Shown: positions 28,351-34,300, counted from the stretch's first letter. The stretch is 64,000 nucleotides of DNA from an uncultured Gammaproteobacteria bacterium (GCA_964471475.1 CAYYFQ010000003.1:164-64163); one strand, 5' to 3'. The notes: generated by a model from the sequence alone, not told the origin. A program made the numbers and translations.

Positions 28351-31300
28351 CTAAGTGTTCTTAAAATTATTTCTTGGTATCAATATTCTAGTTTCGTCTT
28401 GGATTGCGGCACCTCTTAGTGAAACATAGTGTAAACCTACATAATAACCTATATAGAGACAATGTTCTTTATCAGGATTAATTACGGTTGGCTGCTCAAC
28501 ATCACTTCTTATAATGATAAAAGTCATATCCATTGTTCTTGCTAAAGCACTAATCATGGGGTCATCTACCCATTCACCATCCTTATAAGCACGCCTTATG
28601 TAGCTTTCGGGATTGGCTTCATCAAGCGCTTCAATAAAAGGCTTGAACTCTTCTGAATGAGTTAGCATAAAAGCTGCAGCACGTTCTCGAAGTTGTTCAT
28701 AAGAAACATTTTGTTCTATATTTCTTATTTTTAACTGGTCTTCCACAGCATGTAGAAAGCAATTACCATCATGCCAAACAAGTCGGTCTTCTATGGCAAA
28801 ACCATATCGTGTGGCTTGGGTAAGAAGTAAGCTTGAGCTTCCTACATTCTCTCCAGATGTTGCTTGAGACAAATGCAAAGCTTGTTCTAAATCAAGTTCA
28901 TATTTAATCCGCTCTAGATTAATCAATAAAGTAGAAAGCTTAGCCATATCATGAGGATCGATGGACCCTGTATTAAGCTTTGCTGTCGCAAAAAACGGCA
29001 TAATTTGTGAAACAGGTCTTTTTGAAACGGGTATTGAAGGCAGCAAATCCGTCTCTACCTCAACTATTTTCTGCTCTCCTTGCTCAAGAGCACATTCAAA
29101 ATCACTAACTCTTAACCATTCAAATAATTCTAACAATAAAGATACGGCCTGTACCGCAAAAATTTCGGGAATTAAATTTTGTGCATCTACATCAAAAGCT
29201 AAAAAAGTGGTTAATATTAATCCATTACACAGTAAAAAACTGCAATAACATGCAATTTTTTGGATAGCTGAATAGGCAAAAGACTGACCCAGGTATCTAT
29301 TTAAAAGCGTCCGTAGCGAATTAATTAAACTAATGCCAATAAAAAAATACGCACTAAATCTGACGGAACCAAAAAATGTACTTTCAATAAGATCAGGTAT
29401 GGCTTCGGTGCTGATAAATAGCTGAGTTAATTGTTCTCCTGAAATTGCGCTTAATACAACGGCTGGGATTGCAGCGAATGAAAGTGAAGTCGTCATCCCC
29501 AAAACGCCCATACTTAAAATATTTTTATATTGGCTACCGGCTTCAAAACGACTCATAATGAGGCTTGATACGGGGCCTATTATCGAACCACTCAAATTAA
29601 CGAGGTCAAAAGCACTGCGCGCTACTGCGTATCCTACCAAGTCCAAAGCACTACTATCCTTTGAAGCAAACAAGGCAGCTGTTAAGAGATAATTACTCAA
29701 TGAAAAAAATGGCGTATAAAGATATCTTCCCATATCCGCCCAATAACGTTTTATTAATGGCCAGGGAAAGTTTCTAAAGAGTGGGTAATGTCGCAAATGA
29801 TCTTGTCGATAAAGATCCAACATATAAAAAGCAAACTTGCTTATACTCCCTATACTCAACGCTATTCCTAAATTTTGACCATTTAAATCTCCTTTTTCAT
29901 TAAAAAGAAAAGTAGATAACAATGCCGCCCCAGCTTCCATTGCAGCACCGAATGCCATCATGCGGCGCTCATACACTATGGAGTAAAATCCTTCTAGCGT
30001 AATACTGCCTAAGGCAGGGATGGCGCCAATCATATGGGTAAAGGCTAGTAAACTCCAGGCTTGTGTCAAATCGGATTCCATCCCAATCGCCTCACCTATT
30101 TGCTTCGCTAGGCTGCCATAAACAAATAAAGGAATAACCATACTCGTGCTTAAAAATAAGCCTGCATTAAAAGCACGGCCTACTTCATCTGCATTATTTC
30201 GCGATAAAGCAACATTCAGATAGTTGGCAAGCGGCGTATTTAAGTGTTGGGCAAGAGATGAAACCGTCGATACCACTGTATCATCAAGGACAAAGGCGCC
30301 GATTAAAGCAAGTGAGTTGCTGGAAAGCATCCGCAAGATGAGCAATTTTTGTGTTAAATTCAATACACCGACTGCTGTATAAGGCAGTGAAACCTCAAGA
30401 CCTGAATGCCAACTACTGTCTATAAAATCTCGACGACATGTAGCTTTGAAGGTGCGCCATAGCTGTTTGATATGTAAGGCATGCTTTCCTTTTCGTCTTG
30501 CAACTTGTTGCAATCGCTCCTCCGCGCGATCAACGTGAATTGCCCCTGCCTGCTCGAGATCACTGTTCGATGCAGGAACAATATCTAGTCTTAAACTTAA
30601 GCAATCTCGCAAGTAAGCCATCGACATCGTATGCGTGGATAAACCATCCAATGCAGTTTGCCCATCATGATCTCGAAGATTGATATCAATACCACGCGCA
30701 ATTAAAAAATTCGCTAAATGAATATGTCCAAACTCAATACTATGATGCAACAAACTTTTTCCTTCTTCATCTTGGACATTCAACAACTGATGGGCTGTTT
30801 CCGATAAAATGCGCCTAACCTGATAGGTGGCGCCTCTTTTAGCTGCCAACAACAAATTATGACGATCATCACCTATGCGATAAGCATTTAATGCATCTTC
30901 AGATAACAAGCTTGGCACTAAGCGATTTAAAATATTTTGCCAAGGCTGATCAAAGACTTCAAAATGCCCGCACGCAATATCAGCAAAATGGATAGGCTGG
31001 GATTCAGCGAAACAATGTTCCAGGCCATTAAATAAACTATTAAAACCCCAGGCAATATTGGCAGCATACTGATTAGCAAGCGAGACCACATGTCCTTGAC
31101 ATTTGACAAAAACGATTTTCTCAACCGCTTGAATCTTTTCTGCTTGATAGGCTAACATCAGATTCTCTACATGAAATGAGATGTCGGTGATACGTTGCGC
31201 CACATCAAATTGATTAGCTAACTCAGGATGTAGTTTAGCTAATAGATGATTGGTGAAAAGCTTCATGAATGGGTAACCCACCTCATCTGCATAAGTTTGA

Positions 31301-34300
31301 TAACCTGAATCAATCAATATCAAGGTGGCAACCACTTCACCTGCTGCTTGCAGTTGTCGGGTTACTTCCACAGCGATGCTACCTCCCATTGACCACCCTC
31401 CTAAATGATAAGGCCCTTGAGGCGCAACGGTTTTGATTCTTTGAATATAATCCTTTGCTAATGCGCTGAATGCTTTGTAATAGACCATCTCTTCTTCAAC
31501 AAGGCCCGGGTAATTCACGGCATAGACAGAAAACTCTCTTGCTAATGCAGAGGAAAAGGAGCGATACAAGGTGGCAAAACCCGATCTTGGATGAAATAAA
31601 AAAATAGGCGGAGCGAGTCTGTCGACAGCAAATGGAATAATGCTGGCATCCATAAGATCCATCGATGGGCTTTCCTGCGCCTGAATGATGGTTTCAATGG
31701 TTGGCGATTGATAAAAATGACCAATCGTCATTTCAATCGACAATTGGGCCTTTACCGAATGAATCAGTTGAATAACTAATAAAGAGTTTCCGCCCTTATC
31801 AAAAAAATTATCCCGCATGCCGATGCATTCAACCGGAATATGTAACATTTGCGACCATAGTTCTGCTAATTTTCTTTCTGTTACTGTTTGAGGCGCAATA
31901 TAAGTTTCACTCAGCTGATCAAAATCTAATGCCGGTAGCGCTTTACGATCTACCTTACCATTGGCAGTCAAAGGAATTTTATCCAACAGCACCAGCTGGG
32001 CTGGAATCATATAATCTGGTAAAAAAGTAGCTAATTGCGACCTCACTTGACTAACATAATCTTGTGAATCACCATCAAATGCTTGGTCTAATACAAGATA
32101 CGCTATTAATTGTTTACTCCCCTGATTTTCTCTTGCGACAACCACCGCATTTACAACATACGCGTGTTTAAGTAGCTGTGTTTCGATTTCCTCTAATTCA
32201 ATTCTAAAGCCGCGAATCTTAATTTGATTATCGGCTCGTCCTATATATTCGAGATTCCCATCTATTGCATAACGAACCAAATCTCCTGTGCGATATAACC
32301 TGACCGGTGCATCCATTTCGCTAAACTGATGCGTTATAAACCGTTCGCTGGTTAAATCGTCTCGATGCAAATAGCCACGTGCCAAACCAGCACCGCCAAT
32401 ATACAACTCTCCTGCCACACCAATCGGTAAGATATTATGATAAGGATCCAATACATAACATTGATAATTATGATAACTTTTGCCAATGTTATATTCTCTC
32501 GTTTGATCGGTAATGCGATAATAGGTAGCACCTACTGTTGTTTCTGTTGGGCCATATTCATCATAAATACAATCACTATAAGACAAAATGTGACGCGCGC
32601 TTTGCCTATCTAATTTTTCGCCACCTACAATACAATACATGAGACGATAGTTGCCATTAAAGCCCAAATGAATCGCGCTCATTAATGCAGGCGTTGATTT
32701 CACAAGATCAATCTGATTTTCTACTAAATGCTGCACAAATCGATCACTTTCTAAAAGGCTACCACTATAAAGAAAGATCGTTTTCCCAAAACACAAGGGA
32801 TACAAAGTCGTTGTTACAGATAAATCAAAGCTCAAATTACTCGAAAAATCTATTCGCTGGGCATCCGCAAAATGTTCATGCAGATTGAATAAATAGTTAA
32901 CGACGCCGTGCGTTTCAATCATCACCCCTTTGGGACGCCCCGTCGACCCTGAAGTATAAATCACGTAAGCTAAACATTCTGGCCTACTAACCTGCGGTAA
33001 ATTCTCTTGAGGAAACATTCCATATTGAGCAGTAGAGTCTAATGGGACAACAGCAAAGGGGCGTTCTGCATTTGATAAACTTAACCATTTTTGAACTAGA
33101 TGCGTCTGCGTCAACAATAAGGTTATTTGAGTGTCCTCCAGCATATAGTATAAACGCTGCTCCGGATAAGCAGGATCCATAGGGACATAAGCTGCACCTG
33201 CTTTCAATACGGCCAAGATACCAATGATCATTGCAAAAGAGCGCTCCATCCCTAGCCCTACCAGCTGATTTGGTATTGCTCCAATGCCCTCTGATCTTAA
33301 ATAATGCGCTACCTGATTCGCTCTTGCATTGAGCTTTTGGTAAGTCATCGCTTGGCCTTCATATACCAATGCAACTTGATCAGGTGTTTTGTCTACTTGC
33401 GCTTCAAAGAGTTCCGGTAGCGTCATCTGTGGATAAGTAAACTGTGTTTGCGGCCAATGATAAATTTGTAATTGATATTCTTCTTCACTTGCTAGGCTTA
33501 TTTGCTGATGAGTTTGATGTAGCTTCATCGACAGCACTTTGACTATCCGCACCATTTGTTCAAGCAACTGCTTTGCTCGCTCCGTTTCTAAATATTCCCC
33601 AGCATATTTTAAAGAAATCCCTAGCTCACCATTTGATTCATAAGCAACGATGCCTAAAGGATAATCTAGTTTTTCTATTGAAGATCGGAAAACTATTTGG
33701 CTTTCTTCATCAACCATTGCCCTTTCTACAGGATAATTTTCAAAAACAAATAAACTATGGAATAATCGCCTACCTCTTTGTTGTAAGTTTGCTAACTCCA
33801 CATAACTATGCGTATTTAATTCCATGATCCTTTGATGCAACTGCTTGAGTTGCTCTAATACAGTTTCTTCACCGTCCCAATCGATGATCAATGGCAAAGT
33901 ATTAATATATAAACCCACACTTCGTTCTACTCCCTCTATGGGGAGATCCCTACCGGCAATCGTTGTCCCCACGATCGTAGTTGTCGAGCGCGTATACACG
34001 TGAAGCAGCTTATGCCATGCGTATTGCAATAACACATTCACGGTAAAGCCTTCAGCCCTAGCTAAACGGTGCAAAGACGCATAATCTTCATTTTTTAAAA
34101 TTATGATGGCTGTTTGTGGATCACGAATGGCTTTTACTTTATCAAGATCAACGTGGCAACTTAATAAGGCGTTTATATCATTTGCTTCTGCTCCCCGCGC
34201 TAATTTTTCTTGCCAATAACGCTTAACCGTTTCCTTGTGTGTTACAAAGTATTCTTGTACTTTGATATAACTTTTATCGGGCTGAATAATAATGCTTTCA

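Follow-up and report, generated by a model that had tools for sequence, protein, structure and literature searches.

A hybrid PKS–NRPS terminal subunit continuous with a predicted MATE-fold membrane domain and an OTU-type peptidase domain in an uncultured gammaproteobacterium

The known contacts between biosynthetic assembly lines and their transporters, as in the cases of the cereulide transporter CesCD, of PpsE–MmpL7 and of the pyoverdine 'siderosomes', are weak and non-covalent and have been hard to study. The contact between synthase and transporter in the PpsE–MmpL7 pair of mycobacteria was reportedly described by Jain and Cox in 2005. Here we analyse a 64,000-nucleotide stretch of DNA (hereafter the window) from an uncultured Gammaproteobacteria bacterium (GCA_964471475.1 CAYYFQ010000003.1:164-64163), in which an open reading frame (ORF) of 5,859 residues encodes the terminal subunit of a hybrid of polyketide synthase (PKS) and nonribosomal peptide synthetase (NRPS) and continues past its thioesterase (TE) into ankyrin repeats, a membrane domain of predicted MATE fold and an OTU-type cysteine peptidase domain. 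We favour, with moderate confidence, the reading that this is a membrane-tethered hybrid PKS–NRPS whose releasing TE would be placed where its own exporter opens to the cytoplasm, with the OTU domain as an accessory.

A described precedent is the cereulide system, in which the ABC transporter CesCD must tether the NRPS CesAB to the membrane for synthesis to take place, through a non-covalent contact (PMC7527721). Both CesCD–CesAB and PpsE–MmpL7 resemble the arrangement proposed here in that an assembly line is held at the membrane by a transporter and synthesis is linked to export. However, these pairs are non-covalent and involve ABC or RND transporters, whereas in the window protein a peptide bond leads from the synthetase to a MATE-fold domain. 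By analogy, the window protein may be regarded as the covalent form of a known tethering principle.

A second comparison is offered by the colibactin pathway, whose ClbM (4z3n), a MATE-fold exporter dedicated to the NRPS–PKS product precolibactin, is among the Foldseek matches of the membrane domain (E 2.9e-6). An account of this pathway (PMC9889268) associates a peptidase with the export step in the ClbM/ClbP pair. ClbM and ClbP are separate proteins, whereas the exporter-like domain is here fused to the TE; moreover, ClbP, a serine peptidase, works in the periplasm once export has taken place, whereas the window peptidase is predicted to be a cytoplasmic cysteine enzyme of the OTU family. 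A prodrug system of the ClbM/ClbP type calls for an S12 serine peptidase in the periplasm, which cuts off an N-acyl-D-Asn motif after MATE export, and the window protein does not fit that scheme.

The bacterial OTUs studied so far are secreted deubiquitinase effectors (PMC7690952, PMC12501173). The window domain shares the Pfam OTU family with OTUD3, OTUD1, the nairovirus OTUs and the effector OTUs (LotB, LotC, EmcB family), and its DGNC and HY loops align with those of OTUD3. Unlike the secreted bacterial effectors, it forms the C-terminal domain of a predicted polytopic inner-membrane megasynthase. Nor does it resemble the Lot type, which comprises free-standing type IV secretion substrates with a helical insertion between Cys and His, whereas the window OTU domain is fused behind 12 transmembrane helices (TM); no chain named as a Lot, Legionella or Chlamydia OTU appears among the matches to PDB sequences at E <= 1.

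The literature searched, where absence is not proof, yielded no account of a synthetase joined to a polytopic transporter domain, whether of MATE type or another; these searches agree with a first-pass annotation of the window, made from the DNA alone, which knew of no such assembly line. All of the parts are known, and it is the way of joining them that is new and rare, with 14 relatives among 1.84 billion representative proteins.

A continuous frame from termination module to OTU domain

The ORF (28351..45930, minus strand, as are all of the domains described in this section) is a single uninterrupted frame in the ORF list, and its translation shows no stop before 28351 across the last 1,300 codons. 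It thus reads on past the TE as the first-pass annotation had claimed. The ORF list, Pfam matches and a self-phmmer domain comparison give the order of the protein as an ankyrin-like N-terminus, C-A-T, C-A-T, C-A-T-E, C-A-T, TE, ankyrin repeats, the MATE-like domain and the OTU domain. Pfam was run on the last 1,299 residues, and residue numbers in the full protein correspond to positions in that stretch plus 4,560.

The end of the synthetase shows an NRPS termination module. An AMP-binding_C match precedes PP-binding in the C-terminal stretch, and the last carrier (T) domain (residues 4687–4750; 31681..31872; PP-binding, E 2.2e-11) bears the phosphopantetheine Ser motif GGNSL at residues 4713–4717. 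It is followed by a type I TE of the alpha/beta-hydrolase class (residues 4775–5010; 30901..31608; PF00975, E 8.1e-26), with GWSMGG at residues 4845–4850 as its GxSxG motif and a GH motif near residue 5000. The GGNSL carrier and the normal GWSMGG thioesterase recognized at first pass therefore lie where they had been placed, and the Pfam PP-binding and Thioesterase families match both.

The TE is joined to the membrane domain by ankyrin repeats (residues 5026–5095; 30646..30855), for which the Ank_2 (30.3 bits against a cut-off of 27.3) and Ank_5 (31.3 bits against 27) matches both lie above the gathering score. Their presence had been announced correctly, although their number is two to three rather than about three. 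Then come basic juxtamembrane helices (residues 5130–5166; 30433..30543), delimited by the helices at positions 2–20 and 25–35 of the AlphaFold model and by their charge, with 10 Lys/Arg among the 37 residues preceding TM1. The 12-TM domain of MATE fold (MOP superfamily; residues 5167–5629; 29044..30432), identified by AlphaFold, Foldseek and its relatives, is separated by a linker of about 86 residues (residues 5630–5715; 28786..29043), which has no family match and is predicted to be cytoplasmic, from an OTU-type papain-fold cysteine peptidase domain with D5721, C5724 and H5834 as its catalytic residues (28396..28785; PF02338, E 1.9e-14). The whole extension, put earlier at about 1,050 residues, measures about 850 residues from the end of the TE, or about 1,085 residues if it is counted from the start of the TE. 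A check of the window sequence reveals no chimera-prone repeats around the junctions, and the GC content is even across the region.

MATE fold of the membrane domain and its relatives

The membrane domain was analysed on an alignment (A1) of 13 sequences, consisting of the window copy and 12 relatives. Family-averaged hydropathy delineates twelve hydrophobic segments between residues 5190 and 5604, and an AlphaFold2 model built on the same alignment shows 12 long helices (mean pLDDT 87.8, pTM 0.84); both agree with the 12 hydrophobic segments previously counted in a region of about 440 residues. The predicted structure displays the 12 TM helices and the two six-helix lobes that define the MATE fold. 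The first 24 matches of a Foldseek search of the PDB all belong to MATE transporters (one carries no more than a MOP-superfamily label in its deposition), which align at full length over about 450–500 columns with target-normalised template-modelling scores (TM-scores) of 0.56–0.78. The best match is NorM-VC (E 9e-9, target TM-score 0.76), and the matches include NtMATE2, human MATE1, the Camelina and Arabidopsis MATEs, PfMATE and ClbM. Next, with E-values three to four orders of magnitude weaker than that of the best match, come two flippases, WzxE and MurJ.

MATEs of known structure (NorM-VC, 9rsj/7php; NtMATE2, 7dqk; human MATE1, 9r10; CasMATE, 5yck) thus share with the window domain a 12-TM two-lobe fold (Foldseek E 9e-9 to 1e-6, target TM-score 0.70–0.78) as well as the N-in/C-in orientation that is predicted here. 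However, the window domain is just 9–14% identical to them and carries a conserved Arg in TM1; furthermore, it is not free-standing and sits between a synthetase and a peptidase domain.

At the level of sequence, the connection with MATEs runs through the relatives. Weak matches to Pfam MatE (PF01554) are found in three of the 13 aligned family sequences (best E 1.9e-4), and one of the 13 matches TIGR00797 matE (E 3.3e-9). A profile of the membrane family gave no match among PDB sequences, and a sequence repeat between the N-lobe and the C-lobe, sought with hhalign, was not significant (probability 1%). Because the fold match is joined by a transitive sequence bridge via the relatives, the membrane domain is predicted to be a very divergent member of the MATE family, within the MOP superfamily; since the window copy fails the cut-offs of the family hidden Markov models (HMMs), the domain is best called a new, unannotated MATE subfamily. 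The earlier description as MATE/MOP-like is consequently upheld by the fold and by the sequences of relatives, but not by any direct MATE HMM match of the window copy. The TE, ankyrin and OTU parts of the extension are recovered by HMM; the MATE part is recovered by AlphaFold and Foldseek and not by HMM.

An exhaustive HMMER search with residues 5130–5650 against 1.84 billion (1.84e9) representative proteins found only 14 relatives of the membrane domain besides the protein itself (E 6e-114 to 3.5e-8). Their membrane domains are 20–58% identical to one another and fall into two deep clades. The relatives, cited here by their handles, come from separate ENA, JGI and Logan metagenome assemblies, and none of them bears an informative annotation. 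A recognizable TE lies upstream of the membrane domain on the same polypeptide in P0005, P0006, P0007, P0008, P0009, P0011, P0013, P0014 and P0016, and P0012 has a sequence of the matching TE-to-membrane linker type, so that at least ten of the 14 bear the domain directly after a TE. Ankyrin repeats between the TE and the membrane domain are present in several relatives, and occupy the same place in P0006 and P0010. The parts further upstream are those of an Ank-C-A-T... NRPS in P0009 and P0011, FAAL-amine oxidase-T in P0007, FAAL-C-A-T in P0016 and A-T in P0014. P0006 and P0013 show the architecture FAAL-amine oxidase-T-TE-Ank-MATE, and P0005 and P0008 are short TE–MATE proteins.

Since it is conserved in independent and divergent metagenomic relatives, the TE-to-MATE fusion is, judging from these sequences, an old and selected architecture and not an assembly accident. 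The first-pass annotation had taken the whole architecture to be without known counterpart; the fusion of TE and exporter-like domain proves not to be unique, as it belongs to this family of 14 relatives, whereas the OTU tail is found only here. That a small conserved family stands behind the fusion makes it more, not less, credible. Other collections yielded little. A word-index protein search with the 850-residue tail returned generic ankyrin proteins only, and one with the membrane-family alignment returned P0005 only; the tail is absent from a scan of GTDB genomes, and scans of JGI metagenomes were likewise without a match.

Two of the relatives contain short GT–AG introns, of 62 nt in P0006 (locus L087, 2832–2893) and of 55 nt in P0013 (locus L088, 2633–2687), at the same position. 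Once the intron is excised, in either locus, the AMP-binding motif GYG(M/I)AE is whole again and gene calls that had been split become one. These introns indicate that a clade of the family belongs to eukaryotes. By contrast, bacterial-type loci are those of the window, P0005, P0009 and P0011, with tightly packed ORFs, a group II intron reverse transcriptase and a transposase. P0008 (locus L086) ends, about 90 residues past TM12, in CAIM, a CaaX-like prenylation motif that may be due to chance; it fits the other eukaryote-type features of the TE–MATE family.

In alignment A1, the charges of the loops follow the positive-inside rule for an N-in/C-in protein. We infer from this an N-in/C-in topology in which the synthetase and the OTU domain would both be cytoplasmic; the first-pass annotation had placed both on that side, and the charge distribution fits.

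Polar and charged residues within the membrane are also conserved family-wide: TM1 keeps an Arg and two Ser, TM2 an Asp, TM4 a Glu and TM11 an Asn (for example R71, S74, D87, E184 and N440 in A1 numbering), a pattern that speaks for a functional cavity and against a simple anchor. MATEs of the NorM and DinF types have an acidic residue in TM1, cation coupling taking place at TM1, TM7 and TM10 in the NorM type and at TM1 in the DinF type. With an Arg in TM1 instead, both the coupling and the type or charge of the substrate may differ. We consider it unlikely that the 12-TM domain transports nothing and only localises the assembly line, near lipid substrates or another export machine. It is true that the window copy scores below every MATE sequence model, that the conserved TM1 Arg replaces the usual acidic coupling residue, and that tethering alone matters for cereulide synthesis (PMC7527721). 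However, one or two helices would suffice for an anchor, yet a complete 12-TM MATE fold has been kept and is modelled with high confidence; the intramembrane polar residues are conserved among members that are just 20–58% identical, and the visible part of the cluster contains no other exporter. We therefore prefer to see in this domain a putative exporter of the assembly line to which it is fused.

The C-terminal OTU domain

Pfam PF02338 matches residues 5721–5813 with 54.7 bits, against a cut-off of 23.3 (E 1.9e-14). The Cys loop, of D-G-x-C type, is DGNC at residues 5721–5724, and the His loop, with an aromatic residue following the His, is GLHYVS at residues 5832–5837, at a Cys-to-His spacing of 110 residues that corresponds to the canonical short form. 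The Asp/Cys/His triad (D5721, C5724, H5834) is intact. A phmmer search of PDB sequences returns human OTUD3 first (E 3e-7), then OTUD1 and the OTUs of nairoviruses, and both catalytic loops, Cys and His, are aligned. The C-terminal Cys/His protease domain proposed at first pass is thereby borne out, by the score above cut-off and by its motifs. The fold family predicts a deubiquitinase-type (iso)peptidase activity, and the domain is probably an active cytoplasmic (iso)peptidase of the thiol type, gained in this lineage.

Most of the family has no such domain. Where the C-terminus is present, relatives end about 10–90 residues past TM12 with no further domain (12 of the 14). P0009 (locus L085) has a tail of about 290 residues past TM12 (residues about 3040–3337), in which DGHC, WGG and HHF follow one another in OTU order. 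It may be another OTU-like tail, highly divergent and with a long insertion separating the Cys loop from the His loop. This tail has no Pfam match, no BLAST similarity to the window OTU domain and no meaningful match among PDB sequences, and its single-sequence AlphaFold model (pLDDT 35.8) is unusable; as the fold is not confirmed, its likeness to an OTU is one of motif order only. In P0011, the closest relative of P0009, a DDE_3 transposase fragment (locus L084, 22291–22560) overlaps the stop codon, and the tail may have been lost through an insertion sequence.

Within the 86-residue linker that leads from the MATE domain to the OTU domain, no convincing internal Shine–Dalgarno sequence with start codon, or promoter-like site, was found on that strand. 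Ubiquitin-tail cleavage motifs of the LRGG type were sought in the three megasynthases, and the only candidate was SLRGA at residue 5838, within the OTU domain itself.

The first-pass interpretation, the structural statements of which have held where they were tested, offers no role for the OTU domain. One that is compatible with the reading favoured here, and concerns the OTU domain only, is a role in the pathway itself. The domain would then be a thiol hydrolase or transacylase that trims the product by a prodrug-type amide cleavage, edits mis-loaded carrier thioesters or processes the megaprotein in cis, in the manner of viral OTU or papain-like proteases acting on polyproteins. An intact catalytic triad and a predicted location on the side of the membrane where the TE and the transporter entrance also lie would suit such a role, and exporter–peptidase partners are known in prodrug pathways, as in the case of ClbM/ClbP (PMC9889268). 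Nevertheless we judge it improbable, because the known prodrug peptidases are periplasmic serine enzymes, whereas the OTU domain is predicted to be cytoplasmic, and because most members of the family manage without an OTU domain. To our knowledge, moreover, no OTU acts in natural-product biosynthesis, and none was found there in the literature searched.

The chances are slimmer that the OTU domain stands in this protein by accident, a sequencing or assembly error or a recent stop loss having fused a separate effector-type OTU gene to the frame, so that the proteins are in fact separate or the fusion is functionless. Such an accident would account for a featureless 86-residue linker, for the OTU domain being without a detectable close relative in the collections searched and for the 12 of 14 relatives that end about 10–90 residues past TM12; in addition, the end of the ORF adjoins a tRNA at a possible island edge, where gene turnover is quick. 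Yet the frame of the linker is open and shows neither an internal start signal nor a promoter-like site, chimera-prone repeats are absent and the GC content is even, and the distant relative P0009 also has a tail of about 290 residues with motifs in OTU order, its fold being unconfirmed.

Very improbable, finally, is a host-facing Ank–MATE–OTU cassette whose OTU domain would be a true deubiquitinase after proteolytic release or delivery to a host membrane: although ankyrin repeats and OTUs are typical eukaryote-like domains of intracellular bacteria, in which OTUs are secreted deubiquitinases (PMC7690952, PMC12501173), and although human OTUD3 and OTUD1, together with viral OTUs, are the OTUs of solved structure closest to the window domain and the family includes an intron-bearing eukaryotic clade and the CAIM end of P0008, the OTU domain lies covalently behind a 12-TM domain and a synthetase of 5,100 residues in a bacterial inner membrane, the linkers contain no LRGG-type cleavage motif, the only secretion-system gene nearby is a lone T2SS-F/PilC-like gene, and host association of the bacterium is a supposition.

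Biosynthetic cluster and coupling of release to export

Two further megasynthase ORFs precede the terminal subunit on the minus strand, their domains being assigned from Pfam matches and terminal sequences. The nearer one (PKS2; 45991..53649) consists of an ankyrin-like N-terminus, KS-AT-DH-ER-KR-ACP and then ankyrin repeats at 46378–46629. The first visible PKS subunit (53681..63946) consists of KS-AT-DH-cMT-ER-KR-ACP followed by ankyrin repeats at 54065–54307. This latter ORF opens with TTG inside an apparent PKS-module linker (LADIAYTSAIGRSHF...), about 570 residues before its KS, and its gene is likely to extend further upstream, either across a frameshift or stop or out of the window. As both upstream ORFs are reducing PKS subunits, the cluster is a PKS–NRPS hybrid that would make a polyketide–tetrapeptide. 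The first-pass annotation spoke of an NRPS; the 5,859-residue protein is the last subunit of a hybrid and not a pure NRPS. It is encoded on an NCBI contig of 128,633 bp. The cluster runs off the window at position 64000, and no separate exporter gene is visible within the 36 kb of it that the window contains.

Modular PKSs and NRPSs have docking domains, short modules that end one subunit and begin the next. In the window cluster the same positions are occupied by ankyrin repeats. The NRPS begins with an ankyrin-like module (residues about 7–63; 45742..45912, minus strand), which scores 24.9 bits with Ank_2 and so falls just short of the 27.3-bit cut-off. Both the NRPS and PKS2 (about 53500–53649) open with a conserved ankyrin-like module some 60 residues long, of the pattern MY.NIF.A...N..AV..F...GVD, as do P0009 and P0011. 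At the other end, both PKS subunits carry ankyrin repeats C-terminal to the ACP, and the P0009 and P0011 loci (L085 and L084) show the same ankyrin arrangement at the ends of their subunits. These positions suggest that the ankyrin modules may form a split-ankyrin docking system, to which the repeats that follow the TE may also belong. No description of ankyrin docking between synthase subunits was found in the literature searched; on Legionella PKSs with ankyrin repeats, the search gave general genome papers only, none of which describes such an architecture.

On the other side of the ORF, a tRNA-Pro(GGG) gene (28031..28107, plus strand; Rfam 59.2 bits, also found by ARAGORN) lies between rpoZ and the terminal subunit, its 3' end directed towards the ORF, whose stop is at a distance of 243 nt. 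Beyond it are ordinary proteobacterial chromosomal genes (rpoZ, a hydrolase, fadE, fumC, gidB, parA, phoH, tamB and degP). This succession suggests that the cluster may have entered at the tRNA as a genomic island, the other end of which is not within the window. The fadE gene of the window finds its best match among GTDB representatives in uncultured Gammaproteobacteria (52% identity), and none of the results supports a placement in the Legionellales. The alpha/beta hydrolase beyond rpoZ and the tRNA (26846–27646, minus strand) has a weak thioesterase-family match (E 3.3e-4) and could be an editing thioesterase of type II, or else an unrelated housekeeping gene; a Logan contig from SRR16481182 carries the same rpoZ–hydrolase pair. 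Well away from the cluster, the left part of the window holds a phage-type integrase gene (6690–7922, minus strand) and an ORF of 810 residues with no Pfam match (9475–11907, minus strand).

The reading that we favour assembles these parts as follows. Two reducing PKS subunits would be followed by four NRPS modules, with the 5,859-residue protein as the terminal subunit. Its termination unit, the carrier and the TE, would be covalently joined to the 12-TM MATE-type domain via an ankyrin adaptor and a basic juxtamembrane segment. With both termini inside, a synthetase of about 5,100 residues would hang off the cytoplasmic face of the inner membrane, and the ankyrin docking modules would draw the two PKS subunits to the same membrane site. 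The TE would let go the finished polyketide–peptide at the cytoplasmic vestibule of its own exporter, so that release and export would be spatially coupled. The OTU thiol peptidase would hang at the cytoplasmic C-terminus of the transporter as a lineage-specific addition. The product of the pathway is what the domain would transport; that release is coupled to export may reasonably be deduced from this anatomy, and any activity of the OTU domain is a prediction.

Several observations tell against this arrangement. The window copy of the membrane domain matches no Pfam or NCBIfam MATE family and stays below the family HMM cut-offs, and its TM1 carries a conserved Arg where NorM- and DinF-type MATEs have an acidic residue. 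The rest of the cluster, beyond the window, could hold another exporter. The junction between the MATE and OTU domains is supported by a single assembly only, and no close relative of the OTU domain or of that junction was found in GTDB genomes, JGI metagenomes or word-indexed proteins. A deubiquitinase-type enzyme in the cytoplasm has, in addition, no obvious substrate in a bacterium.

A wider proposal, to which we give only a small chance of being right, is that TE–Ank–MATE is an ancient biosynthesis–export module of protists and bacteria, in which subunits would dock through split ankyrins, the terminal subunit would unite synthetase, exporter and deubiquitinase as a single membrane-embedded polypeptide, and the OTU domain would protect the exporter from ubiquitin-dependent removal. 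The OTU domain and the CaaX-like end of one relative would then imply a cassette working at, or from, a membrane that faces a eukaryotic cytosol.

On the reading of a membrane-tethered assembly line with its own exporter, the covalent fusion makes testable the question of how finished natural products pass from cytoplasmic megasynthases to exporters. A link between synthetase and exporter made of a peptide bond would impose a fixed 1:1 stoichiometry and a defined geometry between TE and transporter that suits cryo-EM, and would lend itself to simple genetics, by cutting the link or mutating the pore. For engineering, the cassette could be moved onto other assembly lines for better export or self-protection. 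As current HMM libraries miss the unannotated MATE subfamily, such fusions are invisible to standard genome mining, and a self-exporting, membrane-integrated assembly line would surprise a specialist in natural products. If real, the deubiquitinase-type domain that ends the same polypeptide and the ankyrin repeats at docking positions, for both of which no precedent was found, would point to an exchange of biosynthetic parts between eukaryotes and bacteria.

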